DNA from: Escherichia coli O157:H7 | GTDB taxonomy: Bacteria; Pseudomonadota; Gammaproteobacteria; Enterobacterales; Enterobacteriaceae | Assembly (NCBI RefSeq): GCF_013167455.1 | Contig: NZ_CP038328.1 | Strand: one strand, 5' to 3' | Length of the DNA: 64,000 nucleotides | Part shown: positions 6,690 through 39,137 of the stretch, one piece after another | How the letters are laid out: each line of letters starts with the position of its first letter | How positions within the stretch are numbered: the first letter of the stretch is position 1 | Notes under the pieces: generated by a model | Database searches by the model: none | Seen by the model: the letters and a program-made list of their open reading frames with translations, nothing else | Told to the model about the DNA's origin: nothing | Made by a program: the position numbers and the translations under genes

Positions 6690-7868
6690 ATGCAATTGCG
6701 TAAATTACTGCTGCCAGGACTGCTTTCCGTTACCCTTTTAAGCGGCTGTTCGCTGTTTAACAGCGAAGAAGATGTGGTAAAGATGTCCCCATTGCCAACC
6801 GTTGAAAACCAGTTTACGCCGACCACGGCGTGGAGCACTTCCGTTGGTAGCGGCATTGGCAACTTCTATTCCAATCTTCATCCGGCACTGGCGGACAACG
6901 TTGTCTATGCAGCGGACCGCGCTGGTTTAGTAAAAGCGCTGAATGCGGATGATGGCAAAGAAATCTGGTCTGTCAGCCTGGCCGAGAAAGATGGCTGGTT
7001 CTCTAAAGAGCCTGCATTACTTTCTGGCGGTGTGACCGTGTCTGGTGGACATGTCTACATTGGCAGCGAAAAGGCGCAGGTTTACGCGCTGAATACCAGC
7101 GATGGTACTGTGGCATGGCAAACTAAAGTCGCGGGTGAAGCACTTTCGCGCCCGGTGGTCAGCGACGGTCTGGTGTTAATCCACACCAGTAACGGTCAGT
7201 TACAAGCGCTGAACGAAGCTGACGGCGCTGTCAAATGGACAGTTAACCTCGATATGCCTTCGCTCTCTTTGCGTGGCGAGTCTGCGCCGGCAACGGCTTT
7301 TGGTGCGGCCGTCGTGGGGGGCGATAATGGTCGCGTCAGCGCAGTGCTGATGGAACAGGGCCAGATGATTTGGCAGCAGCGTATTTCCCAAGCGACCGGT
7401 TCTACCGAAATTGACCGTCTGAGCGATGTTGACACGACTCCCGCCGTTGTTAACGGCGTTGTTTTCGCGCTGGCCTATAATGGTAACCTGACGGCGCTTG
7501 ATCTGCGCAGTGGTCAGATTATGTGGAAACGCGAACTGGGTTCGGTGAATGATTTCATCGTCGACGGCAATCGCATCTATCTGGTCGATCAAAATGACCG
7601 GGTGATGGCGTTGACCATTGATGGCGGCGTTACGCTGTGGACACAAAGCGATCTGCTGCATCGCCTGCTGACTTCTCCGGTGCTGTATAATGGCAACCTG
7701 GTGGTCGGTGACAGTGAAGGTTATTTGCACTGGATTAACGTCGAAGATGGTCGTTTCGTTGCCCAGCAAAAAGTTGATAGTTCCGGTTTCCAGACTGAAC
7801 CGGTTGCCGCTGACGGCAAACTGCTGATCCAGGCAAAAGACGGAACCGTGTACTCTATTACACGTTAA
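6690..7868 (+). CDS. bamB: outer membrane protein assembly factor BamB (lipoprotein, beta-propeller)
   Basis: Track ORF 392 aa; lipobox LLSGC near N-terminus; repeated propeller blades. Confidence 0.95.
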   Translation: MQLRKLLLPGLLSVTLLSGCSLFNSEEDVVKMSPLPTVENQFTPTTAWSTSVGSGIGNFYSNLHPALADNVVYAADRAGLVKALNADDGKEIWSVSLAEKDGWFSKEPALLSGGVTVSGGHVYIGSEKAQVYALNTSDGTVAWQTKVAGEALSRPVVSDGLVLIHTSNGQLQALNEADGAVKWTVNLDMPSLSLRGESAPATAFGAAVVGGDNGRVSAVLMEQGQMIWQQRISQATGSTEIDRLSDVDTTPAVVNGVVFALAYNGNLTALDLRSGQIMWKRELGSVNDFIVDGNRIYLVDQNDRVMALTIDGGVTLWTQSDLLHRLLTSPVLYNGNLVVGDSEGYLHWINVEDGRFVAQQKVDSSGFQTEPVAADGKLLIQAKDGTVYSITR

Positions 7869-7985
7869 TCGTCTCTGTCGTTCACTTTGAAAACGGCTCC
7901 TGGACAGGGGCCGTTTTCCTGTTTTTAACAACGACGCGAATATAGCGTGCGTTGTCTGATGATTTATAAAAATGAGGCTTTAAAC

Positions 7986-9458
7986 ATGGTACCTGTGGTC
8001 GCGCTTGTCGGGCGCCCTAACGTAGGAAAATCCACGTTATTTAACCGTCTAACTCGCACCCGAGATGCGCTGGTTGCGGATTTCCCGGGTCTGACTCGTG
8101 ACCGTAAGTACGGTCGTGCGGAAATTGAAGGCCGTGAGTTTATCTGTATTGATACCGGCGGGATTGATGGCACAGAAGACGGTGTAGAAACCCGCATGGC
8201 GGAACAGTCGCTGCTGGCGATTGAAGAAGCGGACGTCGTACTGTTTATGGTGGATGCGCGCGCGGGCCTGATGCCGGCAGATGAAGCGATTGCCAAACAT
8301 CTGCGCTCCCGTGAAAAACCGACCTTCCTGGTGGCAAACAAAACTGACGGTCTGGATCCCGATCAGGCAGTGGTTGATTTCTACTCGCTTGGTTTAGGTG
8401 AAATCTACCCGATCGCCGCGTCTCACGGTCGTGGCGTATTAAGTCTGCTGGAGCATGTGCTACTGCCGTGGATGGAAGATCTCGCACCGCAAGAGGAAGT
8501 CGACGAAGACGCTGAATACTGGGCGCAATTTGAAGCGGAAGAGAACGGCGAAGAAGAAGAGGAAGACGACTTCGACCCGCAAAGTCTGCCGATCAAACTG
8601 GCGATTGTGGGTCGTCCGAACGTAGGTAAGTCTACACTCACTAACCGTATTCTTGGTGAAGAGCGCGTTGTTGTTTATGACATGCCTGGTACGACGCGTG
8701 ACAGTATCTACATTCCAATGGAACGCGATGGACGTGAGTATGTGCTCATTGACACCGCTGGCGTACGTAAACGCGGCAAAATCACCGATGCTGTAGAGAA
8801 ATTCTCCGTAATCAAAACGTTGCAGGCCATTGAAGACGCCAACGTGGTGATGTTAGTGATTGATGCGCGCGAAGGTATTTCCGATCAGGATCTCTCGCTG
8901 CTGGGCTTTATTCTCAATAGTGGGCGCTCACTTGTCATTGTGGTGAATAAGTGGGATGGCCTGAGTCAGGAAGTGAAAGAGCAGGTGAAAGAAACGCTGG
9001 ACTTCCGTCTGGGCTTTATCGATTTTGCTCGTGTGCACTTTATCTCTGCCTTGCACGGCAGTGGTGTTGGTAACTTGTTTGAATCAGTACGTGAAGCGTA
9101 TGACAGCTCCACCCGTCGTGTGGGGACCTCTATGCTGACGCGCATCATGACGATGGCTGTTGAAGATCACCAACCGCCGCTGGTACGCGGTCGTCGTGTG
9201 AAGCTGAAATATGCACACGCCGGTGGTTATAATCCGCCGATTGTGGTGATTCACGGTAATCAGGTGAAAGACCTGCCTGATTCCTACAAGCGTTACTTGA
9301 TGAACTACTTCCGCAAATCGCTGGACGTAATGGGATCGCCGATTCGTATTCAGTTCAAAGAAGGGGAAAACCCGTATGCGAACAAGCGTAACACCCTGAC
9401 GCCAACCCAGATGCGTAAACGTAAGCGTCTGATGAAGCACATCAAGAAAAATAAATAA
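7986..9458 (+). CDS. der: GTPase Der/EngA (tandem GTPase domains)
   Basis: Track ORF starts at GTG 7947; the recognised N-terminus [17 protein letters not shown] begins at ATG 7986; two GxxxxGKS P-loops. Confidence 0.94.
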
Positions 9459-16402: not shown

Positions 16403-18646
16403 ATGAAACTGAATGCAACTTATATAAAAATACGTGATAAATGGTGGGGGCTTCCGCTGTTCCTGCCTTCTTTAATCTTGCCCATTTTCGCCCACATTAA
16501 TACTTTCGCGCATATTTCTTCCGGTGAGGTTTTTCTCTTTTATCTGCCTCTGGCACTGATGATCAGCATGATGATGTTTTTCAGCTGGGCGGCATTGCCA
16601 GGGATCGCCTTAGGGATTTTTGTCCGCAAATATGCAGAGCTGGGTTTTTACGAAACGCTCTCATTAACGGCTAATTTTATTATCATTATCATTCTCTGTT
16701 GGGGCGGTTACAGGGTCTTTACTCCCCGGCGTAACAACGTTTCACATGGTGATACCCGTTTAATTTCCCAGCGTATATTCTGGCAGATTGTGTTTCCTGC
16801 AACGCTGTTTCTGATACTTTTCCAGTTTGCTGCATTTGTAGGATTACTGGCGAGCAGAGAAAATCTGGTTGGCGTCATGCCTTTTAATCTCGGGACCTTA
16901 ATCAATTATCAGGCCTTACTGGTGGGCAATCTGATTGGTGTCCCGCTGTGCTACTTCATCATTCGGGTAGTGCGAAATCCGTTTTATTTACGTAGTTATT
17001 ATTCGCAATTAAAACAGCAGGTTGATGTCAAAGTCACCAAAAAAGAGTTCGCACTCTGGCTGCTGGCATTAGGTGCTTTACTGTTGCTGTTATGCATGCC
17101 GTTAAATGAAAAAAGCACAATTTTTAGCACCAATTATACCTTGTCATTATTGCTGCCCCTGATGATGTGGGGAGCGATGCGCTATGGTTATAAGCTGATT
17201 TCGCTGCTCTGGGCGGTCGTGTTGATGATCAGCATCCACAGCTATCAAAATTACATTCCCATTTATCCTGGCTATACCACGCAGCTGACCATAACCTCCT
17301 CCAGTTATCTGGTATTCTCTTTTATTGTCAATTATATGGCTGTACTGGCAACCCGTCAGAGAACGGTAGTCAGACGCATTCAGCGCCTTGCGTATGTGGA
17401 CCCGGTGGTTCATCTGCCAAATGTTCGCGCCCTGAATCGCGCGTTGCGTGATGCCCCCTGGTCTGCGCTTTGTTATTTACGCATCCCTGGCATGGAAATG
17501 CTGGTTAAAAACTATGGCATCATGCTGCGGATTCAATACAAGCAAAAACTTTCTCACTGGCTGTCACCCTTGCTGGAACCAGGTGAAGATGTTTATCAGC
17601 TTTCGGGTAACGATCTCGCGCTGCGACTGAATACAGAATCGCACCAGGAGCGCATTACCGCACTGGATAGCCATCTCAAGCAATTTCGTTTCTTTTGGGA
17701 TGGCATGCCGATGCAACCGCAGATTGGCGTCAGTTACTGCTATGTGCGCTCGCCAGTGAATCATATCTACCTGCTGCTGGGAGAGCTAAATACGGTCGCC
17801 GAACTTTCCATCGTGACCAACGCCCCGGAAAATATGCAGCGTCGCGGGGCAATGTATTTGCAACGCGAATTGAAAGATAAAGTCGCGATGATGAATCGAC
17901 TACAGCAGGCGCTGGAACACAACCATTTTTTCCTGATGGCCCAGCCGATTACCGGTATGCGTGGTGATGTTTACCATGAAATTCTTCTGCGCATGAAAGG
18001 TGAGAATGATGAACTAATCGGCCCCGATAGCTTCTTGCCGGTCGCGCACGAATTTGGTTTATCGTCGAGTATCGACATGTGGGTCATTGAGCATACGCTG
18101 CAATTTATGGCTGAAAACAGAGCGAAGATGCCCGCTCACCGTTTTGCTATTAATCTGTCTCCAACCTCGGTATGTCAGGCTCGTTTTCCTGTTGAAGTCA
18201 GTCAGTTGCTGGATAAATATCAGATTGAAGCGTGGCAACTTATTTTTGAAGTCACCGAAAGTAATGCTCTGACCAATGTTAAGCAGGCGCAAATCACCTT
18301 GCAGCATCTTCAGGAATTAGGCTGCCAGATTGCGATTGATGATTTCGGCACCGGCTACGCCAGCTATGCGCGGCTTAAAAATGTGAATGCCGATCTGCTT
18401 AAAATTGACGGCAGTTTTATCCGCAATATTGTGTCAAATAGTCTGGATTATCAGATAGTGGCATCGATTTGCCACCTGGCGCGAATGAAGAAAATGCGGG
18501 TAGTGGCAGAGTACGTTGAAAACGAAGAGATCCGCGAGGCGGTGCTCTCTTTGGGGATCGATTATATGCAGGGTTATCTTATTGGTAAGCCGCAACCGTT
18601 AATTGATACGCTGAATGAAATCGAACCCATTCGCGAAAGTGCCTGA
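16403..18646 (+). CDS. pdeF: c-di-GMP phosphodiesterase PdeF/YfgF (MASE1, degenerate GGDEF, EAL)
   Basis: Track ORF 747 aa; N-terminal multi-TM region, C-terminal EAL domain. Confidence 0.9.
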   Translation: MKLNATYIKIRDKWWGLPLFLPSLILPIFAHINTFAHISSGEVFLFYLPLALMISMMMFFSWAALPGIALGIFVRKYAELGFYETLSLTANFIIIIILCWGGYRVFTPRRNNVSHGDTRLISQRIFWQIVFPATLFLILFQFAAFVGLLASRENLVGVMPFNLGTLINYQALLVGNLIGVPLCYFIIRVVRNPFYLRSYYSQLKQQVDVKVTKKEFALWLLALGALLLLLCMPLNEKSTIFSTNYTLSLLLPLMMWGAMRYGYKLISLLWAVVLMISIHSYQNYIPIYPGYTTQLTITSSSYLVFSFIVNYMAVLATRQRTVVRRIQRLAYVDPVVHLPNVRALNRALRDAPWSALCYLRIPGMEMLVKNYGIMLRIQYKQKLSHWLSPLLEPGEDVYQLSGNDLALRLNTESHQERITALDSHLKQFRFFWDGMPMQPQIGVSYCYVRSPVNHIYLLLGELNTVAELSIVTNAPENMQRRGAMYLQRELKDKVAMMNRLQQALEHNHFFLMAQPITGMRGDVYHEILLRMKGENDELIGPDSFLPVAHEFGLSSSIDMWVIEHTLQFMAENRAKMPAHRFAINLSPTSVCQARFPVEVSQLLDKYQIEAWQLIFEVTESNALTNVKQAQITLQHLQELGCQIAIDDFGTGYASYARLKNVNADLLKIDGSFIRNIVSNSLDYQIVASICHLARMKKMRVVAEYVENEEIREAVLSLGIDYMQGYLIGKPQPLIDTLNEIEPIRESA

Positions 18647-27402: not shown

Positions 27403-27762
27403 TTAACCCACGATTTCCAGTACCTGCTCCGGTGGACGACCAATCCGCGCTTTGCCATTCGCGACCACAATCGGGCGCTCCATCAGCTTCGGATTATCCA
27501 CCATTGCCTGAATCAGCGCCTCTTCGCTAAGCGAACTGTCAGCCAGGTTCAGTTCTTTATAAAGATCCTCTTTCTGGCGCATCAATTCACGGGCGCTATT
27601 CATCCCCAGCATTTTCAGCAAATCGCGCAGCGTTGCCGCATCGGCGGGTGTCTCAAGGTAGAGCACCACTTCTGGCTCCACGCCGTTTTCTTTCAGCAGG
27701 TTCAGCGTTTCCCGGCTCTTTGAACAGCGTGGGTTATGGTAGATTTTTACCTGTTTGGTCAT
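27403..27762 (-). CDS. yfgD: ArsC-family reductase-like protein YfgD
   Basis: Track ORF 119 aa; ArsC/Spx fold with N-terminal Cys (NPRCSKSRE). Confidence 0.9.
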   Translation of the reverse strand: MTKQVKIYHNPRCSKSRETLNLLKENGVEPEVVLYLETPADAATLRDLLKMLGMNSARELMRQKEDLYKELNLADSSLSEEALIQAMVDNPKLMERPIVVANGKARIGRPPEQVLEIVG

Positions 27763-27782: not shown

Positions 27783-29246
27783 TTACATCTTGGTATAAGG
27801 CTTAAAGCGTTCCTGCAGCTGGCGCAACTGGTCGATGCGCGCATCGTAACGCGCTTGTTGCAGGCTGCCTAATTTCACCTGCGAACTGGCGCTACTCAAC
27901 AGCGAAATGGCCTGATCGAGTCGTCCGGCGAGCGCATAACCTTCTGCTCGCGCAGCCAGCTCCTGATCGCGGTTATTTAGCGCGGCTTCCGCCTGTGCCA
28001 GCAAATCCCAGCCGTTGCTGTCATCTTTATTATTAAAGGTGTAGCGATTAAGAATATTGGCCGCTTCTTGTGGTTGACCGCCTTGTAGATAAGCGTTCGC
28101 CAGGTTGAGCTGCAACACAGGATTGGTGCGCAAATCGCGGGCATTTTTCAGACGATTGATCGCCTCATTGGCTTTGTTTTGCCCAAGATCGATATCAGTA
28201 GCCAGATCGAGATACCATGCGTTGCCAGGTTCTGCCGCCAGTAACGGTTGCAGCGTTTTTCGCGCCTCGTCGTATTTATTGGCTTCCATCGCCTGTAAAG
28301 CACGACCATATTGCGCCGCTCGTTGCTGACGAACGTTTCCTTTCGCCCATTCATCCAGCAAATCACTGGTGAGCTGGTTACGTCCGGAATTATACATCCC
28401 CAGTGTGCGCGCTTTCGCCAGATAGAAATCTTCCGACGACTGCACCACCATCGGGCGCATCTGATTAGCACGGTTGCGGGCATCTGCCAGACGACTTTCC
28501 GGCAACGGGTGAGTCAGTAAAATTTCCGGCGGGCGCGAGGAGTAACGCGCCTGATCGAGTAATTTTTCGAGGAAGGTTGGCATCGCCTGCGGATCGAATC
28601 CCGAGCGTTGCAGCACCTGAATACCAATGCGGTCCGCTTCCTGTTCATTTTGCTGGGTGAAACTGATCATCCCCTGACGCGTTCCCGCCAGTGTACCGGT
28701 CAGCGCCGCCATCCCCGCCTGCGGACTGGCCATCGCCAGTAAAATAGAACCTAACGCGCCGACCCAGGTCAGCGGCGCGTTGCGCTGCTGATCTTCCATC
28801 GCTCGCGCCAGGTGACGTTGGGTGACGTGGGAGATTTCGTGCGCCATAACTGAAGCCAGTTGACTTTCGTTATCGGAATAACGGAACAGGGCAGAGTGCA
28901 GCACCACGTTGCCGCCAAAGAAAGCAAAGGCGTTAATTTCGTCGTTGTTGATCAGAAAGAAATGAAACGGTGTCTTAACCGAATTGGCATGCGAAACCAG
29001 ACGCATCCCCAGCGAATTAATATATTGCGTTAACAGCGGGTCATTAATTAACGGCGCGCTGCCGCGTAGCTGGCGGACATAATAGTCGCCCATCTGCATT
29101 TCCTGACCAATGGAAAGCGTGCTTCCTGCGGAGGTTCCCATATCCGGCAAGGTGTCTGCGCTGTCGGCAAATGCCGGGGCTACCTGACCAATGGTCATAG
29201 CAGCAATGAGGGTTGCAACCAGGTTTTTTTTCAACTGCCTGAACAT
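27783..29246 (-). CDS. bepA: periplasmic beta-barrel assembly-enhancing protease BepA (M48 + TPR)
   Basis: Track ORF 487 aa; HEISH zinc motif; signal peptide; sigmaE-type promoter upstream. Confidence 0.95.
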
Positions 29247-29277
29247 AACCTCTATCCTGTATTTCTGAAGATAGTCA

Positions 29278-29305
29278 TTTGACCGATACTGTGAAATATC
29301 GTTCC
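29278..29305 (-). promoter_or_regulatory. sigmaE-type promoter for bepA (-35 GGAACga, 16-nt spacer, -10 TCAAA)
   Basis: Minus strand reads GGAACGA-tatttcacagtatcgg-TCAAA, ending about 32 nt upstream of the bepA ATG. Confidence 0.55.
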
Positions 29306-29458
29306 CACCGCGCCGCCTTTGAGTGTAACGGCGAAGATTAGCCCACTCAAATGACTTTTCAGTTTCCTGAATCCGTCATAAAAAGCGAAGTCTTTTTTGT
29401 GACATTTCGATACAATTGCGGATCGCAATCCCGCTCTTGAGGTTCAGGGAAGGTCTTT

Positions 29459-30520
29459 ATGCTCGAAATGTTGATGCAATGGTATCGCCGCCGTTTTAGC
29501 GACCCGGAAGCGATTGCCTTGCTGGTTATTTTAGTTGCCGGATTTGGCATTATCTTTTTCTTTAGTGGCCTGCTTGCTCCGTTGCTGGTGGCTATTGTGC
29601 TGGCCTATTTGCTGGAATGGCCAACCGTGCGCCTGCAATCTATTGGCTGCTCCCGCCGCTGGGCGACGTCGATTGTATTGGTGGTTTTCGTCGGTATATT
29701 GCTACTGATGGCGTTCGTGGTACTGCCTATCGCCTGGCAGCAGGGCATCTACTTAATCCGCGATATGCCGGGGATGCTCAATAAGCTTTCTGACTTTGCC
29801 GCCACGTTGCCGCGCCGCTATCCGGCGTTAATGGATGCGGGCATTATTGATGCAATGGCCGAAAATATGCGCAGTCGGATGCTGACCATGGGCGATTCGG
29901 TGGTGAAAATTTCCCTCGCCTCGCTGGTCGGTTTGCTGACCATTGCCGTCTATCTGGTGCTGGTACCATTGATGGTCTTCTTCCTGCTGAAAGACAAAGA
30001 GCAGATGCTGAATGCCGTTCGCCGGGTGCTGCCGCGTAACCGTGGACTGGCAGGACAGGTGTGGAAGGAGATGAATCAACAAATCACCAACTATATCCGC
30101 GGCAAAGTGCTGGAGATGATCGTAGTAGGGATCGCCACCTGGCTGGGATTCTTACTCTTCGGGCTGAACTATTCGCTGCTGCTGGCGGTGCTGGTCGGCT
30201 TCTCGGTACTTATTCCGTACATTGGCGCATTTGTGGTGACCATTCCGGTGGTTGGCGTGGCGCTATTCCAGTTTGGTGCAGGCACTGAATTCTGGAGCTG
30301 TTTCGCGGTGTATCTGATCATTCAGGCGCTTGACGGCAACCTGTTAGTACCGGTGTTGTTCTCCGAAGCGGTTAACCTGCATCCGCTGGTGATTATTTTA
30401 TCGGTGGTGATCTTCGGTGGTTTGTGGGGATTCTGGGGCGTATTCTTCGCCATTCCATTGGCGACGCTGATCAAAGCCGTGATCCACGCCTGGCCCGATG
30501 GGCAAATAGCGCAAGAATAA
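29459..30520 (+). CDS. perM: AI-2E-family inner membrane permease PerM/YfgO
   Basis: Track ORF 353 aa; polytopic membrane protein. Confidence 0.9.
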   Translation: MLEMLMQWYRRRFSDPEAIALLVILVAGFGIIFFFSGLLAPLLVAIVLAYLLEWPTVRLQSIGCSRRWATSIVLVVFVGILLLMAFVVLPIAWQQGIYLIRDMPGMLNKLSDFAATLPRRYPALMDAGIIDAMAENMRSRMLTMGDSVVKISLASLVGLLTIAVYLVLVPLMVFFLLKDKEQMLNAVRRVLPRNRGLAGQVWKEMNQQITNYIRGKVLEMIVVGIATWLGFLLFGLNYSLLLAVLVGFSVLIPYIGAFVVTIPVVGVALFQFGAGTEFWSCFAVYLIIQALDGNLLVPVLFSEAVNLHPLVIILSVVIFGGLWGFWGVFFAIPLATLIKAVIHAWPDGQIAQE

Positions 30521-30557: not shown

Positions 30558-31406
30558 TCAGGATTCCTGACGTAAATAAATAGCCCGATAACAAATACTC
30601 ACCAGCACTGCACCGCCGATAATATTACCCAGCATCACCGGGAGCAGATTGGCGGTAATAAAATGGCTGACCGTCAGTGCAGGAAAATTGTCTGCGCTAC
30701 TGTGCGCCAGTTGCCAGAAGGAGGTAGGGGCGAAATGGCGAATGGCAATGGCGAACGGAATCACAAACAAATTGGCGATACAGTGCTCAAAGCCACTGGC
30801 GACAAACAGGGTGATGGGCAAAATCATGGCGACGATTTTGTCGCATAACGAACGCCCGCAATAACTCATCCACAGCGCCAGGCAAACCATCAGATTGCAC
30901 ATAATGCCGAGGCTGACAGATTCAGTAAATGTATGATGCATTTTGCCCTCGGCGCAGTGTAAAACCGCGACTCCCCACATCGCGTTTTCACTCATCACCA
31001 GCCCGGAAAACCAGATTAACAAACTGAAACAGGCAATACCTGCCAGATTACCGCAGGCCACCAGAAGTGCGTTAATCAGCCAAGTTCGCCAACTAATAAC
31101 GCCCCGACTTTTTGCCATCACCGTCATTACCGACGAGGTGAACAGGCTGGTGCCGCAAACCGCCAGCAAAATAAAGCCGAGTGTAAAGCAAAGGCCGCCC
31201 ACCAGATGGGTTAATGCCTGTGAAGACGGGGCATCGGCGATAACGGAAAGGTAAAAAGTAAATCCGATCGCCATAAACACGCCAGCGGACATCGCCATTA
31301 AAAAGACCGACACTTTACTGCGGGCAATTTTATGGGCGGCAATCCGTTCAGCGATTGCCGCTTTTCTGGCGCTCAACTGCAAGTCGAAAGAGAGTTTGTT
31401 TCTCAT
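30558..31406 (-). CDS. focB: formate channel FocB (FNT family)
   Basis: Track ORF 282 aa; last gene of the hyf locus. Confidence 0.9.
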   Translation of the reverse strand: MRNKLSFDLQLSARKAAIAERIAAHKIARSKVSVFLMAMSAGVFMAIGFTFYLSVIADAPSSQALTHLVGGLCFTLGFILLAVCGTSLFTSSVMTVMAKSRGVISWRTWLINALLVACGNLAGIACFSLLIWFSGLVMSENAMWGVAVLHCAEGKMHHTFTESVSLGIMCNLMVCLALWMSYCGRSLCDKIVAMILPITLFVASGFEHCIANLFVIPFAIAIRHFAPTSFWQLAHSSADNFPALTVSHFITANLLPVMLGNIIGGAVLVSICYRAIYLRQES

Positions 31407-31427
31407 GCATACTCCTGCAAAAGCAGA

Positions 31428-33440
31428 TTACAACACCTCGCGAACCGAGATCCCCAGACGCTGCATTCGTGACAGCAGCGTGGTGCGCTTCATCCCTAAT
31501 CGTGTCGCCGCGCCACGGGGCCCGGCAACAATGCCATTGGTTTCTCGCAATACCTGAACAATGCGCTGACGTTCTTCTTCGTCATTCTCTGGCGTCGTCG
31601 GGTGCAGCAACTGCGCCATTGAACTGCGAAGCGCTGAATCTTCATTTAGCGTCGGCAGTAAACGGCTTTGTCGGACATTAAGATGTAAATTCAGACTGTT
31701 ACCGCGAGTCAGCAGTACCGCTCGCTCAATCACGTTTTCCAGCTCGCGCACGTTGCCCGGCCAATCCCACGACATCAACTGGCGTAGTGCCTCGGTCGGG
31801 ATGGCGTCAATTGCGCGATTCATATGGCGCGCCATTTTTTGCGTGAAATGTTTTGCTAAAAGAGGGATATCTTCCGGACGGTCTCGCAGCGGCGGCAATT
31901 CCAGTGGGAAGACATTCAGGCGATAAAAGAGATCGCTGCGAAACTGGCGATCTTCAACCATTTGCCACAAATCACGGTTGGTGGCGGCAATGACTCTGAC
32001 ATTCACCGGGATCGTTCTACTCCCGCCGAGACGCTCAATTTCCCGCTCCTGCAATACGCGCAGCAATTTAGGCTGAAGTTCTAACGGCAGATCGCCAATT
32101 TCATCGAGAAACAACGTACCGCCATCGGCAATTTCAAAACGACCACGATGGGTATTAATCGCACCAGTAAAGGCCCCTTTGTCATGACCGAATAACTCAC
32201 TTTCCAGAAGACTGGCGGGGATGGCAGCGCAGTTGATTTTGACCAGCGGCTTGTCGCGTCGCGGGCTAAGTTGATGGATCGCTCTGGCGATCACCTCTTT
32301 GCCGGTTCCGGTTTCACCACAAATCAACACCGTACTGTCGCTCTTCGCCACAATATCTACCTGCTGGAGCAGGTCTTCCATTGCCTGGCTTTGATAGATA
32401 ATGTCACCGACGCCCAGATTCGAAAGGAGCTGCTCGCTAAGCTGGTGGTTTTCTTGCTGCAAACTTTCCTGCAAATCGGTCATGCTACGCCAGGCATCGG
32501 CATTGCCAACGGCAATAGCGATGCGATCGGCTATGTGTTGTAGTAGCTGGCAGTTTTCCTCACTAAAGAGAGTGGTAGAGGTATGCGCCAGCAACAATGC
32601 ACCCGGTGTATGGTTGCCAAAGGTAAGCGGTATCAGGAGCGAAGATTCGCAGCCGTTAGATGCAAGTAAGTGTAATAACGGGTCGCGTTGCCAGAGAAAC
32701 AGATCGTCTGCACGGTGCGTCAAGGTCGGTTGTCGGGTTTGTAGCGTTTGTGTCAGCAATACACTGTCGCCAGGCATATTGCGTGGCAGACACGCACAAT
32801 GTGAGGCAGAAAGATCGCTGCACCACAGGCTGAACTTCTCGTTCTTTCGATGATCGCCCAGTACCATACTGACTGAAGCCAGACCGAAAAAATGATGGAT
32901 CTCACGAGCGACGTCAGCGATCAGATCGTCGAGATCAAGATGTGACAGCACTGCATTAGTGATATCCACCAGTACCCGATGATGATCGCGATCTTTCTCC
33001 AGCAAACGCAGCGCCACCTGTTGTTCTTCATCATTGAGCCATGATTGCAGAACCGGGGTGATAATGCGTGCCAGCCAGTTAAACAGTGTGCAATCCTGGG
33101 GAGTAAAACGACTGCCGTGGGTGCGAATAAAGCGTAGCTCCGCCATTCCACTACTGCCGAGAAGGACGGCGTGACGCGAATAATCGACCATCTCGCCCTG
33201 ATACTCTGTTGTTGCCGTCACATCGCTGCCATCATCATGGTAGCGGTAATAGAAGTTGCTTTTGAGAACATGCAGTTCAATAAGTTGTACCGGGCTGAAC
33301 GGCGGCGGCAGCGGGATGAAGGCGCGTAATAAAGACGCCTTGCCGTGTTTCTGCGCTAACCGCTCTGCGAGCATTCCGTTTACCGCTTCAATTGTTATTC
33401 CTTGCGGCGGGGCAAACATCGCCTCGTCTGACATAGCCAT
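31428..33440 (-). CDS. hyfR: sigma54-dependent transcriptional activator HyfR
   Basis: Track ORF 671 aa (TTG at 33443, ATG at 33440); AAA+ GETGTGKE Walker A and C-terminal HTH. Confidence 0.9.
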   Translation of the reverse strand: MAMSDEAMFAPPQGITIEAVNGMLAERLAQKHGKASLLRAFIPLPPPFSPVQLIELHVLKSNFYYRYHDDGSDVTATTEYQGEMVDYSRHAVLLGSSGMAELRFIRTHGSRFTPQDCTLFNWLARIITPVLQSWLNDEEQQVALRLLEKDRDHHRVLVDITNAVLSHLDLDDLIADVAREIHHFFGLASVSMVLGDHRKNEKFSLWCSDLSASHCACLPRNMPGDSVLLTQTLQTRQPTLTHRADDLFLWQRDPLLHLLASNGCESSLLIPLTFGNHTPGALLLAHTSTTLFSEENCQLLQHIADRIAIAVGNADAWRSMTDLQESLQQENHQLSEQLLSNLGVGDIIYQSQAMEDLLQQVDIVAKSDSTVLICGETGTGKEVIARAIHQLSPRRDKPLVKINCAAIPASLLESELFGHDKGAFTGAINTHRGRFEIADGGTLFLDEIGDLPLELQPKLLRVLQEREIERLGGSRTIPVNVRVIAATNRDLWQMVEDRQFRSDLFYRLNVFPLELPPLRDRPEDIPLLAKHFTQKMARHMNRAIDAIPTEALRQLMSWDWPGNVRELENVIERAVLLTRGNSLNLHLNVRQSRLLPTLNEDSALRSSMAQLLHPTTPENDEEERQRIVQVLRETNGIVAGPRGAATRLGMKRTTLLSRMQRLGISVREVL

Positions 33441-33469
33441 CAACAGTCCTTATTAATGAGAAATCCTTC

Positions 33470-33883
33470 TCACGCAATTTTTCTGGCCATCAGATAGATA
33501 GCCGGTTCCAGCACAATTTCATCCAACAGATGAATGAATTGAATGCTACGCGCTTGCCACACAGACGTCGCGTCATCTGCCAGTGGCGCGAATGCCCGGG
33601 TCAACAGGGCGGTGTGGCTGGCGTCAATAACAATCTCACCAAAAGTCATCACCCCCAGCATCTTACGTCGGGCTTGCTCCTCTTCGACCAGTGCAAGCCA
33701 ATCTTCGTATTCCGTCAGTGGGCAGCGGAAGGTGACATTCAGACAATCAATCACGCCAACGTGATGACCGATAGCCAGCGAGTAATACATTACCTGGGAG
33801 CTGTGTTCCGGCATCTCGTCGCTACTGGCGACAAACTTTTTTCGCAGCGTCCAGAAAACAATTTCCCCGCACTCTTCAGTCAT
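33470..33883 (-). CDS. hyfJ: hydrogenase-4 component J (HycH-like maturation factor)
   Basis: Track ORF starts at 33946; ATG 33883 gives the recognised [12 protein letters not shown]-terminus; overlaps hyfI 3' end. Confidence 0.85.
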
Positions 33884-34634
33884 GTAACCCCCGGAGTACG
33901 CGAAAGAGTTGCTGAACGATACTATTGAGACGTGGATCGTCGGCATCGCGCAACCAGGTGTTAACCCGATTTCCTGTAGGATCGTTGCTTAAATGGCGCA
34001 GGAGCCGATCGCAAATTTCTTGCCCCTGACGATAGCCCGCCAGCCGCCGCGCTTCTCGCTCAATGGCGATACGCTGTGATGGCGGGATCTGCGGCCACAA
34101 CGGTTGCATAGTCACCCCGGTGGGATCGCGATAATCCACCGCGTGAATCTTCTGTTGCAGCAAACCGAGCGCCACGGCGAAACCGTGAATGGTGGCGGCC
34201 GGTGTTGGCGGGCAGCCGGGGATCCAAACATCAATGGGGACAATGGTGTCGCTGCCGCCCCAGACGCTGTAGAGATCGTGGAAAATACCGCCGCCGACAC
34301 CGCACGCGCCGTAGGAAACACAGATTTTATGATCGGGGGCAGACTCATACGCCCGAAGTGCAGGCATACGCATCGCCCGGGTGACTGCGCCAGTAAATAA
34401 CAAAATATCGGCGTGACGCGGTGATGAAACAACCTTAATGCCAAAACGTTCTGCGTCGAATACGGGTGTGATGGCGGCAAAAATTTCGATTTCACAGGCG
34501 TTGCAGCCGCCGCAATCGACGCGATAAACGTAGGCTGAGCGACGGATATCCTGTAGCAAATGCCGCTTCATCTTTTGCGTTTGCTCGTCCAGCGTGATGG
34601 GCTGGCTGACATGTTGTGTAAGCACTGGACTCAT
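33876..34634 (-). CDS. hyfI: hydrogenase-4 small subunit (NuoB-like)
   Basis: Track ORF 252 aa; NuoB-type Cys ligands. Confidence 0.9.
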
Positions 34635-35176
34635 AGCTGCTCCTTAGCCACCAGCGGTACATCTGTATCGTCGTTGATCAGCGTCGCGCGTTGTTTGCAC
34701 TCCGGGCAGACGCTCGCTTGCGCCCGCAACATTTCGCGGTTTTGTGGCGCATTTTGTTGCTGTGCCAACAATTCAGCAGCCAGTGCGACGGTTTTTTGCG
34801 GGGCAAACGGGCGTTCGCAACGGCTGCAACGTTGTAGATGGAACGTCGCGCGGGTATAGAGATCGGCTTTATTGGTGACGGTCAGTTCAAAGTTATTGGT
34901 AAGCTGGATGGCTCTGGTCGGGCACACTTCTTCACAACGTCCGCAGTAAATACAACGCCCCAGATAGAGCTGCCAGGTGCGCGAATTTTGCTGGTCGTCG
35001 GTCTGGATAGTCAGCGCATTTGTCGGACAAGCACAGGCGCAGGCACCACAGGCAATACATTGGCTGGGCATCAGGTCCGGTTTCCCGCGAAAGCCTGGGC
35101 TGACCTCCAGTGGCGCGAAGGGATATTTCACCGTCGCGGTTCCGGCGCGCATAATAGTTTTCAGTAACTTCAGCAT
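34631..35176 (-). CDS. hyfH: hydrogenase-4 2[4Fe-4S] ferredoxin subunit
   Basis: Track ORF 181 aa; CxxCxxCxxxCP motifs. Confidence 0.9.
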
Positions 35177-35185
35177 CTTCTGTCC

Positions 35186-36901
35186 TTACTTCAGCGGCGA
35201 ACGGTTACGATCAATGCCGTAGCGTTCGATCTCTTTATACGGCACGGTTTTTGACTGGCGCTTGCGCACATCAACCAGCGTCACACGGTCGGTACAGGAG
35301 TAGCAGGGATCAAGGCTACCGATAATCAGCGGTGCGTCAGAAACGGTATTGCCGCGCAGCATGTAACGCAACACCGGCCAGTTGGCGTAGGTGGCGGCAC
35401 GGCAGCGCCAGCGGAACAATTTTTGGTTATCACCGAGCATGCTCCAGTGCACGTCTTCACCGCGTGGCGCTTCAACAAAGCCGAGCGCGAATGCGTGAGG
35501 TTTATAGCTAAAGCCTTCGGTCAGCAGTGGGGTATCCGGCATGTTGTCGAGAGCAAATTCCAGCATTGCCAGCGAATCAAACGTCTCTTTGACACGGACC
35601 ATCACGCGGGAGAAAACATCGCCGCCGGTGAAGGTAAACAGTGTTTTTGGAATATTGCCGTAGTCGGCGTAGGGGTGATCAAAGCGCAAATCACGGGCAA
35701 AACCACTGCCGCGGATCAGCGGCCCTACAGGGCTATAATCACGGGCGATTTGTCGGTCGAGAATGCCAATGCCCTGAGTGCGTTGTTCCATATTCGGCGT
35801 GGCAAGCAGCATTTCTACCAGCTCCGACACGTCGGCGCGCATCTCGCGCACCAGTTTCAGCGTTTGCAGACGTTGCTCTTTGAGAATATCGCGGCGAACA
35901 CCACCAATCAGATTCAGACCGTAGGTTTTACGCGACCCGGTCAGCAATTCCGCCATTGTCATCGACTTTTCCCGCACGCGGAAAAATTGCATAAAGCCGG
36001 TATCAAATCCAACAAAATGGCAGGAGAGGCCAAGGTTGAGCAAATGACTGTGTAGCCGTTCGACTTCCAGCAGAATCGAGCGAATGGTATGCGCTCGTTG
36101 CGGCACCTCAATCCCCAGTGCATTTTCAACCGAGTTGGTATAGGCCACACTGTGGGCAAAACCGCAAATCCCACACACGCGGTCCGATAAGAAGGTCACT
36201 TCGTTGTAGCCCATCCGCGTTTCTGCCAGTTTCTCCATGCCGCGATGGACATAAAACAGACGGTAATCAGCATCGACAATTTGCTCGCCATCCACAAACA
36301 AGCGGAAGTGACCCGGTTCATCGGAGGTGATATGCAGCGGGCCGACAGGGATCACCCGCGCACCGCTGTTGCCCTCATTGATAAACGGATACGTTTCGGA
36401 ATCAGTCGTCGGTTCAGGGCGCAGTCGATAATCCATCGCATCTTTGCGCAGCGGATGCATATCTTCCGGCCAGTCATCGGGCAACACCAGGCGACGCTGA
36501 TCCGGCAGGCCAACCGGAATCAGCCCGTACATATCACGAATTTCTCGCTCGCCCCAGACCGCGGCAGGGACGCGCGGTGTGACTGACGGAAACTCCCGAC
36601 TGTCGGCATCGACCAGCGCCTTCACCACAATCCAGCATTTTTCGGCCCCTTCCATTGAAAGGGCATAATAAACCGCGTAATGACCGTTAAGTGTCCGCTC
36701 GTCGTTGCCAAACAGGACCGGAAGCCAGCCATCATGTTGATAATAAAGATACTGTACAACGTCAGGCAGCAGATTGATTTTCACCGTAATGGTGACCTGT
36801 TCAGGCGTTTGTCGCTCTTCATCCAGCACCGCGCCGGGGAACTGCGTTTTCAGGGCGGCGAGAATCGCTTCGCCACGATTTGACGATGAATTAACGTTCA
36901 C
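35186..36901 (-). CDS. hyfG: hydrogenase-4 large [NiFe] subunit (NuoCD-like)
   Basis: Track ORF starts at ATG 36946 with no SD; in-frame GTG at 36901 has a GGAG SD and overlaps the hyfF stop; exact start uncertain; C-terminal DPCxxC nickel ligands. Confidence 0.88.
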
Positions 36902-38471
36902 TGTGTTTCTCCGAAACAGATGCGGTGCCTGAAGGCAAAAAATCATGCCAGGTGCTACGTTGTGCAGGCAGGTCGTGCGTCCCTGAGAGGACTATAGTGG
37001 AAGCGCCCGCCAGGATCCTGATGACAGGTTGTGGAATATGCGTTCCCATCGCCAGCATCATGACCAGCAGAATCACCATTGGCGAGGTGGTCAACCAGCC
37101 GAGATCACCCCGGTTAACGGCCTGCGGCGGTTTCGCCATTAACACCCGCGCAGCCATCCGTACCAGGCCCGCCAGCACCAGCGTTAACAGCAATAACAGC
37201 AGGACGATAATCAGCAGGTGATTACGTGCCAGTCCGGCGGTAACGGTCATAAATTCGCTAAGAAAAATGTTGAAGGGCGGCATCCCTGCCAGCGCCAGCG
37301 CACCGCCGCCAAACAGCACGGCGGTAAATGGCATGATTTTGAGCATCCCACAGACGACGTTGAGATCGCGCGTGCCGTACTTGAGCAGTACATTGCCGGA
37401 ACCGCAGAACAGCAGCGTTTTTGCCAGACTGTGGTTTAAGGTGTGCAGCAGCGCGGCAAAAATTCCCAGCGGCCCGCCAATGCCTAGCGCCACCGCGACC
37501 AGTCCCATGTTCTCCACGCTGGAGTACGCCAGCAGACGCTTAATGTCCCGCTGTACCAGAATGAAAAATGCCGCCACGGCAACCGACAACATGCCGAAGA
37601 TGAGCAACAACCGGTTGGGGAAATCGCTGCCGATGGCCTGGCAAATAATGATGTAATAGCGAATCAGCACCAACAGCGCGCAGTTCAGCAATACGGCGGA
37701 GAGTAGGGCGCTGACCGGACTCGGCGCTTCACTGTGAGCATCCGGCAGCCAGGCGTGCATGGGAAATAGCCCGGTTTTGGTACCAAAGCCAATTAGCACA
37801 AACACAAAGGCCAACAGCATTAATGTTGGATCAAGCAAGGACGATTGCTTAAGAACCTCGCTCCAGAATATCGCCATTTCTGCCTGCGGCATAACGCTGG
37901 CGGCGTTGGCGTATACCAGCACGGTACCGAACAGACCAAAAGCGACACCAACAGTACAAATAATGATGTACTTCCATGCTGCTTCCAGCGATGAACGCTG
38001 ACCGTAAATGCCTACCAGAAACGCCGAGCTTAAGGTGGTGGCTTCGATCGCCGCCCACATCACAATCAGGTTATTGCTGGTAACAACCAGCAGCATGGTG
38101 AACAAAAACAGATGGAAGAAACCGTAGTAATCGCACAGCGTAACGGGTGAAAGCTCGCCGTGCTCAACTTCATGACGCATGTAGCCAATCGAGTAAACAC
38201 CGGTGAGAAAGCCAATCACACCAAGAATGGCGAGGAACAAACCGCCCAGACCATCAATATGAAGCCACAGTCCCGCAGCGAATATTTCTCCTGCATCAGC
38301 GGCAGTTTGGACCACCCAGAGTGCCAGAATCAGCAGCAGTGTGATCCCTAAGCTATGTAATACTGTCACCGTGCGAGTCGCAGAGTGCCCTCGTTTCCGG
38401 CAGGCAAAACAGAGCAGCGAAAAAAGCAGCGGAGTGAGCAGGAGTAAAGCGAACATCACAGAATAACTCAT
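36891..38471 (-). CDS. hyfF: hydrogenase-4 antiporter-like membrane subunit (NuoL/M/N family)
   Basis: Track ORF 526 aa; polytopic. Confidence 0.9.
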
Positions 38472-38475
38472 CTCA

Positions 38476-39126
38476 TTATCCCTTCAGCGCGGTCAAGTTG
38501 TTCACGTCCAGCGTGCCGTGGGTACGCCATATTTTTCTTGCCAGTAACACCATCACAATGACGGCGAAGATGGCGTCGGTAGCGATACCAATTTCCACCA
38601 GTTCCGGTGCACGCCAGGCTAGAAGCGCCAGCACCAGATGGGAGCCGTTTTCCATCAGGCAGTAACCAAAAATTTGCCGCAGGATATTGCGCTGGCTAAC
38701 AATGCACAGCAGGCCAAGCAGAAAATGACCTAACGCCACCGCCAGCGCTGGTTTCAGCCCGGTAGCCATCGGTAGCTTCACGGGCTGAACGACAAATGCG
38801 CAAAGCAGGACAATTAACGCCGCGAGCAGTGCCATCATTGCCGGACCGAATAACGCTTTTTCCGGGATGTTCTGGGGAATATTTCGTGCAGCGTAAGTCA
38901 TGATTAACGGTACCAGCAGCACTTTGGTGATAAAGGCGCTGGCGGACCAGATCAGCAGTTGCTCTGCGGCGAACAGGCACGAGAGGGTGGCGAAAATAGA
39001 CACCAGCACCAGCGACTGGCAGGCGTAAAATCCGCATGACAGGCGATAGCTTTTGACGCTAATCACAAACAGCGATGTCAGCATCATCAGTCCCGCCAGA
39101 TTATTTACGATCATAGAACCGGTCAT
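38476..39126 (-). CDS. hyfE: hydrogenase-4 membrane subunit E
   Basis: Track ORF 216 aa; polytopic. Confidence 0.88.
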
Positions 39127-39137
39127 TCATCATCTCC

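Follow-up and report, generated by a model that had tools for sequence, protein, structure and literature searches.

The sigmaE promoter of the bepA-yfgD operon on an Escherichia coli O157:H7-like chromosome and its conservation in the Enterobacteriaceae

The minus-strand motif GGAACGA-N16-TCAAA, located in the spacer between the divergent genes bepA and perM, is almost certainly bepAp1, the known sigmaE promoter of the bepA-yfgD operon. It was found in a 64-kb window, i.e. the whole stretch of 64,000 nucleotides analysed here, which is E. coli chromosome and is 100% identical to O157:H7 strains across positions 29000-29700. Both the promoter and its transcription start site (TSS) have already been mapped and catalogued, and very little about the promoter itself is new; it is now placed precisely on the O157-like sequence. 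From the sequence alone, an existing sigmaE promoter was thereby recognized with an error of only 2 nt in its mapped start. As judged from the loci compared, bepAp1 is an Enterobacteriaceae-wide promoter with lineage-specific variants; it is not universal, being absent from several lineages through loss and from one E. coli strain.

Geometry and mapped transcription start of bepAp1

The genes at this locus are arranged in the order hda (+), yfgD/arsC (-), bepA (-), perM/yfgO (+), focB (-) and hyfR (-). The genes flanking the spacer and the elements of the promoter are as follows:

27403..27762, minus strand: yfgD/arsC, an open reading frame that follows bepA after 20 nt and completes the bepA-yfgD operon as its second gene
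27783..29246, minus strand: bepA (yfgC), an open reading frame of 487 aa coding an M48 protease with TPR, the beta-barrel assembly-enhancing protease of RefSeq
29247..29271, minus strand: 5' UTR of bepA, 26 nt including +1, read from the sequence, with ACAGGA..GAGG (AGGA at 29258-29255)
29272, minus strand: transcription start of bepAp1, an A, on which the RegulonDB TSS and the motif geometry agree
29278..29285, minus strand: extended sigmaE -10 element CGGTCAAA, with the core TCAAA at 29282-29278, fitting (T/C)GGTCAAAA
29283..29298, minus strand: spacer between -35 and -10, 16 nt, tatttcacagtatcgg, read directly and without sequence constraint
29299..29305, minus strand: sigmaE -35 element GGAACGA, read directly (consensus GGAACTT)
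29459..30520, plus strand: perM (yfgO), divergent, an AI-2E family transporter, from the open reading frame and RefSeq

Between pdeF and ppx (window ~17350-18570; RefSeq, positions 6856-8069 of the O157:H7 record L081) lies a transposase gene of the IS3 family with a programmed frameshift, about 11 kb from the bepA promoter and unrelated to it.

The bepA/perM spacer spans 212 bp (29247..29458) between the start codons at 29246 and 29459, as the first-pass annotation of this DNA had it. That annotation had also read GGAACGA-N16-TCAAA on the minus strand, from 29305 to 29278, as a sigmaE -35/-10 architecture with the right spacing. Direct reading bears out all of these positions as well as the architecture, and the -10 match proves to be even longer than was given there. 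The -35 element agrees with GGAACTT at 5/7 positions with a perfect GGAAC core, while CGGTCAAAt (29285-29277) agrees with (T/C)GGTCAAAA at 8/9. Written out, the promoter is GGAACGATA-N12-GGTCAAAT, which yields a spacer of 16 nt, and the 5-nt discriminator tgact that follows TCAAA puts the predicted +1 on the A at 29272, with 26 nt from the -35 to +1. The last A of the -10 and the A of the bepA ATG (29246) are 32 positions apart, with 31 nt between them, matching the earlier estimate of about 32 nt. Rhodius 2006 (PLoS Biol 4:e2) gives the sigmaE consensus as GGAACTTTT for the -35 and (T/C)GGTCAAAA for the -10, with 15-19 nt from GGAACTT to TCAAA (16 being strongly preferred), a discriminator of 5/6 nt, a purine start and a -35 to +1 distance of 26/27 nt (range 25-28). 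The spacer, the discriminator and the -35-to-+1 distance of bepAp1 are the published sigmaE optima. The A/T-rich, UP-like region found upstream of strong members of this class, which is not obligatory, is absent here: the approximately 30 nt lying 5' of GGAAC (tcgccgttacactcaaaggcggcgcggtg) are G+C-rich, with about 34% A+T. Given this composition and the lack of an UP element, bepAp1 is expected to be of modest strength.

The start predicted from this geometry coincides with a mapped one. The RegulonDB list of RpoE promoters, reproduced in the S4 Table of Shimada 2017 (PMC5493296), contains bepAp1 in forward orientation with a TSS at 2,614,090, a coordinate that is second-hand in this form, and with the evidence codes AIPP(W), which is weak, and TIM(S), which is strong and stands for transcription initiation mapping. 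The offset of 1,978 between U00096.2 and NC_000913.3 was calibrated on the PurR-site sequence CCGGAAGCGATTGCCT, which was reported at 2,613,843-858 in the same frame as bepAp1 (Cho et al. 2011, PMC3159470) and occurs at 2,615,821-836 of NC_000913.3 and at 29504-29519 of the window. The TSS of bepAp1 is accordingly position 2,616,068 of NC_000913.3, 26 nt upstream of the bepA ATG (2,616,094), and on the window it is the minus-strand A at 29272, the same base that the geometry predicts. The first-pass annotation had expected a bepA transcript with its 5' end near 29270, which is only 2 nt off the mapped start. Over the 212-bp spacer, the window and K-12 differ by one base (29268, +5). The PurR sequence itself falls early in the perM ORF, at codons 16-21, and not in the spacer; the corresponding ChIP-chip peak was labelled 'yfgO/yfgC' (Cho et al. 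2011, PMC3159470).

The coincidence of the two starts bears on a competing reading, in which the functional promoter is a sigma70-like TTCACA-N16-TATCTT (29295..29268, minus strand) and the sigmaE motif is coincidental. A generic scan does find these hexamers as a 9/12 match on the bepA strand, but it is the one match in the region and does not exceed what shuffled sequence yields (mean 0.5, sd 0.8). Moreover, TATCTT (29273-29268) contains the mapped TSS at 29272 and cannot therefore be the -10 behind it, sigmaE induction acts on this 5' end (see below), and neither hexamer is conserved outside Escherichia/Citrobacter, TTCACA belonging to the drifting sigmaE spacer and TATCTT to the variable discriminator/leader. 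We consider this reading highly improbable, and TTCACA-N16-TATCTT was rejected as a functional promoter on account of its shuffle-level score, its lack of conservation and its incompatibility with the mapped TSS.

Expression data place bepA under sigmaE, in agreement with its description in the first-pass annotation as an envelope-stress gene. Bury-Mone 2009 recorded sigmaE induction of 2.4-fold for yfgC and 1.5-fold for yfgD, crediting their membership in the regulon to Rhodius 2006, and the gene has been described in print as 'yfgC, a gene regulated by sigmaE'. Lacoux 2020, the sole relevant match when the bepA promoter was sought by name in the full-text literature, refers to bepA-yfgD as a 'sigmaE-dependent bicistronic operon'. 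In that study, tagRNA-seq again mapped PbepA to a primary 5' end, its initiation frequency rises after sigmaE induction, and it is among the 21/22 re-mapped earlier sigmaE-TSSs with a significant change in initiation frequency. Thus mapping of the start under sigmaE induction, which had been proposed beforehand as the check on the motif, was already in print, and PbepA passed it. Neither bepA/yfgC nor perM is listed among the 126 RpoE holoenzyme peaks of the genomic SELEX of Shimada 2017. This is a weak negative, since that experiment recovered only 19 known sigmaE promoters, with rybB and micA as the top peaks. The absence from the SELEX peaks, together with the 2.4-fold induction, is consistent with a modest promoter.

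Taken by themselves, the motif statistics are merely suggestive of a promoter. The pattern GGAAC-N18-TCAAA has one match on both strands of the 64-kb window against 0.11 expected from 100 dinucleotide-preserving shuffles, 11 of which gave a match, and GAAC-N17-GTCAAA likewise has one match against 0.18 expected. It is the phylogenetic footprint (see below) and the mapped transcription start that carry bepAp1 beyond chance. One might still suppose that the motif is coincidental and that sigmaE induces bepA indirectly or via some other site, given that a 10-base bipartite pattern turns up in 11/100 shuffled windows and that the bepA site is missing among the RpoE SELEX peaks. This supposition is already contradicted on three counts: a mapped TSS of the sigmaE class sits exactly at the predicted distance, the cross-genus footprint is specific to the two elements, and a consensus-word scan of the whole window detected no rival sigmaE-like site within the bepA-perM spacer or 100 nt on either side of it. 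It is scarcely credible. An Rfam scan of 28900-29800 at E<=1 matched no RNA family, and nothing therefore points to a riboswitch or sRNA encoded between bepA and perM.

Conservation and loss of bepAp1 across the Enterobacteriaceae

The conservation of the promoter was studied in 80 Enterobacteriaceae loci with bepA, which comprise 79 distinct spacers and 75 distinct non-Escherichia loci. In 79/80 of them perM is divergent from bepA, and the spacers measure 151-231 bp. When the loci are right-aligned on the ATG, nearly all display (G/T/C)GAAC, a variable stretch of 16 nt and (G)GTC(A/G)AA, with the distance from the motif to the bepA ATG kept at about 30-33 nt. GGAAC or its variants TGAAC/CGAAC occupy the homologous -35 position in most of the 80 loci. 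Because a statistic tied to the motif would be partly circular, conservation was assessed with a sliding template and an unbiased MAFFT alignment. The E. coli 5-mer plus 7-mer template was moved with unchanged geometry along the whole upstream region, allowing +/-6 nt and calling matches of at least 11/12. At the offset of the sigmaE motif (29305), GGAAC plus GGTCAAA is retained at this level in 57/75 non-Escherichia loci and at 12/12 in 26, whereas most other offsets score 0/75. The 16 nt between the elements drift freely from genus to genus while the elements themselves are kept: information content per column is 0.72 bits in the spacer versus 1.8-1.9 in the elements, a comparison which is motif-anchored and hence partly circular.

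Lineage-specific variants of both elements were noticed. Enterobacter and the Citrobacter freundii group carry TGAAC at the -35, Buttiauxella and Dryocola have CGAAC...TGTCGAA, and Kosakonia and Salmonella show the -10 variant GGTCATA, the Salmonella promoter being retained as GGAACAA-N16-TCATA. In Salmonella, Citrobacter, Enterobacter, Klebsiella, Kluyvera, Buttiauxella and others, the promoter sits at the same distance from the bepA ATG as in E. coli and has the same geometry. No sigmaE motif was detected in the one Pantoea examined, where a gene for a GGDEF protein lies between bepA and perM.

Three loci are devoid of the motif, which is deleted in two (L044 and L056) and degenerate in the third (L055). 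The two deletions, in Enterobacteriaceae bacterium UBA7338 and 'Escherichia sp. ESNIH1', leave spacers of 151-152 bp; about 60 bp are missing in comparison with other genera, including the sigmaE promoter and the TACACT block discussed below, while the block on the perM side stays. These deletions look like a lineage-specific loss of sigmaE control over bepA.

Within E. coli, the region from -40 to +3 is identical in 4,848/5,426 records. The remaining 578 records differ only by C->A at 29293, the one common polymorphism, which falls between the -35 and the -10, and both sigmaE elements are invariant in all records except for one deletion strain. This strain, E. coli A24 (NZ_CP028751.1; L084), lacks about 190 bp, equivalent to window positions ~29300-29490, such that the perM coding sequence is joined directly to the sigmaE spacer. 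Gone with this segment are the -35, both conserved blocks (TACACT and the perM promoter block) and the start codon of perM, which makes A24 a natural promoter-deletion variant.

Further conserved elements of the spacer and a sigmaE motif inside dapA

A MAFFT alignment of 25 representative spacers, combined with a 20-mer profile, brought out four further conserved features, namely the perM ribosome-binding site, a 38-bp block, a block around the hexamer TACACT and the ribosome-binding region of bepA. The perM ribosome-binding site, AGGGAAGG on the plus strand, is conserved, and in the bepA leader the block ACAGGAnnGAGGTT is nearly invariant across genera; ACAGGA..GAGG within the leader is probably the bepA ribosome-binding region. 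The two remaining features are:

29322..29327, minus strand: TACACT hexamer, candidate -10 of a distal bepA promoter by conservation, with a -35 candidate TTGAGT at 29350-29345 and a 17-nt spacer
29380..29417, plus strand: conserved block of 38 bp with TACAAT at 29411-29416, candidate perM core promoter

We found no annotation for the TACACT hexamer or the 38-bp block and, in the literature searched, neither an experimental TSS for the perM block nor an experimental record for the TACACT block; the bepA-perM spacer also has no RpoD genomic SELEX entry.

The 38-bp block has a median identity of 92% to E. coli over the 79 distinct spacers, which represent about 25 genera, compared with a chance floor of ~11/20 elsewhere in the spacer. 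Upstream of its TACAAT lie an A-tract and a poor -35, and the block is likely to be the perM core promoter, with a predicted start at about 29423 on the plus strand. A generic sigma70 scan at 9/12 does not call it, because of the poor -35. Since conservation over 38 bp exceeds the needs of a core promoter, an overlapping regulator site is also suggested; by eye, the block does not fit the consensus of CRP, LexA, TyrR, LacI/GalR-family, sigma28 or sigma32. The first-pass annotation had held that this spacer must also contain the perM promoter, which is reasonable in view of the conserved TACAAT block as a candidate, but no experimental mapping of it was found. A small inverted repeat, ATTGCG-atc-CGCAAT, occurs at about 29432-29415, where the spacer sequence is not conserved between genera.

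The TACACT block raises the question of whether bepAp1, while real, is the sole promoter of bepA. TACACT might be the -10 of a distal sigma70/sigmaS promoter starting near 29315, which would provide basal expression of bepA, with bepAp1 adding the stress induction; such an arrangement would complement rather than replace the sigmaE promoter, and we regard it as a real possibility that stops short of being probable. The hexamer, in the form TA(C/A)A(C/G)T, is present in 74/79 distinct spacers, in most of them at a distance of 16-18 nt on the upstream side of the sigmaE -35. T1, A2 and T6, the positions of greatest weight in a sigma70-type -10, are retained across ~25 genera while the flanks drift. 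Variants of cTACACTc include TAAACT in Klebsiella/Raoultella and TACAGT in Buttiauxella, and the TACACT block is kept in Salmonella, which also speaks for the distal promoter. A C just upstream of the hexamer would suit the sigmaS option, and the very name 'bepAp1' would seem to imply that more numbered promoters are on record. On the other hand, the -35 candidates are weak (3-4/6) and not conserved in position, E. coli has a 12-nt deletion in the -35 region relative to other genera, the generic sigma70 scan makes no call at 9/12, and the spacer is without an RpoD SELEX record. The block could instead be a regulator site, or belong to a region around -55 to -50 that the sigmaE holoenzyme touches upstream of its promoter. 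The joint proposal, namely an undescribed distal sigma70/sigmaS promoter of bepA arranged in tandem with bepAp1 plus control of perM through a putative regulator site overlapping its core promoter, is offered only tentatively.

A scan of the entire window revealed one other sigmaE motif with perfect cores, GGAACTT-N17-TCAAA at 46121-46149 on the plus strand, inside dapA (45628-46506). Its predicted start is the G at 46155, or its neighbour 46156, equivalent to about 2,599,232-2,599,233 on the reverse strand of K-12; counted from 46155, bamC begins 368 nt further on, with its ATG at 46523. In Rhodius 2006 (PLoS Biol 4:e2), NlpB/BamC is said to be sigmaE-induced 'through an unknown mechanism', and in Bury-Mone 2009 dapA is not induced while bamC rises 3.1-fold and purC 2.4-fold; transcription running past the bamC terminator into the purC region is on record in the literature. 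The bamCp promoter of RegulonDB (TSS 2,597,036) is distinct from the dapA-internal site. It corresponds to window position 46374, 149 nt upstream of bamC, as placed by gene-anchored mapping on NC_000913.3, linear transfer from K-12 being unreliable over 17 kb. Its sigmaE motif is poor, with an 8-nt discriminator and a -35 matching at 3/7.

Codons of dapA were compared across 11 genera (E. coli, Salmonella, Kosakonia, Cronobacter, Kluyvera, Buttiauxella, Pluralibacter, Mangrovibacter, Pectobacterium, Erwinia and Pantoea). The codons GGG AAC TTA are invariant in 11/11 genera, although GGG and TTA are non-preferred; between the -35 and -10 codon usage is unconstrained, and CAG ATC (A/C)AA GAG is then conserved. 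In the first ten genera, third-position invariance in an 11-codon window over the site reaches 0.64, the maximum in dapA, against 0.14 overall, and is 0.25 at the region of the RegulonDB bamCp. Only 1/23 invariant-leucine columns of dapA has an invariant codon, and this is the TTA of the site (10% of Leu codons in these genes). Such conservation makes the dapA-internal motif a strong candidate for a conserved sigmaE promoter of bamC, which might also serve purC by read-through. The site is missing from the RegulonDB sigmaE list (Shimada 2017) and from the literature searched, and we make no claim to priority. Its omission may be explained by the distance constraint in the filter of Rhodius 2006. 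The site may matter more than bepAp1 itself, as it offers a candidate route for the sigmaE induction of bamC that Rhodius 2006 left unexplained.

The segment of the window at 30558-45300, with focB, hyfR and hyfJ-A, was also compared with the loci L085, L087-L089, L091 and L093-L096. In Salmonella, Cronobacter, Kluyvera, Buttiauxella, Mangrovibacter, Erwinia and Pantoea, perM is directly beside bcp-gcvR-dapA-bamC-purC, and the ~14.7-kb hyf-focB cluster looks like an insertion specific to E. coli/Kosakonia, or alternatively a loss elsewhere. Without this cluster, bepA and dapA-bamC, both linked to sigmaE, would be ~3 kb apart.

Proposed mechanism and relation to known sigmaE promoters

When unfolded outer-membrane proteins appear, the anti-sigma factor RseA is cleaved by DegS/RseP, and the extracytoplasmic-function sigma factor sigmaE (RpoE) is freed. 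At the bepA locus, sigmaE-RNA polymerase would then recognize GGAACGA as the -35 and CGGTCAAA as the -10, 16 nt apart, and sigmaE presumably contacts these bases directly. Transcription begins at the A at 29272, giving an mRNA with a 26-nt leader followed by bepA and then yfgD. BepA is a periplasmic protease/chaperone that helps or degrades stalled beta-barrel proteins of the outer membrane, such as LptD. That bepAp1 ties the production of BepA to envelope stress is established knowledge.

The closest comparison is with bepAp1 of K-12 itself (RegulonDB/EcoCyc; formerly the yfgC promoter, sigmaE/sigma24), which has the same locus, -35, spacer, -10 and TSS; apart from the O157:H7-like strain background there is no difference of substance. 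In relation to the canonical sigmaE promoters as modelled by Rhodius 2006 and Rhodius & Mutalik (rpoE P2, rpoH P3, degP, bamA, bamD, bamE, micA and rybB, among others), there are several differences: the -35 word of bepAp1 has GATA at positions 6-9, where the canonical promoters have TTTT, the A/T-rich UP-like region is wanting and induction is modest, and, unlike the top-peak promoters rybB and micA, bepAp1 was not recovered by RpoE genomic SELEX. The core is shared, with GGAAC, GGTCAAA, the 16-nt spacer, the 5-nt discriminator, the purine start and the 26 nt from -35 to +1 all being like those of the canonical promoters. The likeness extends to the product, as BepA, like the products of the core sigmaE regulon, acts in the assembly and quality control of outer-membrane proteins.
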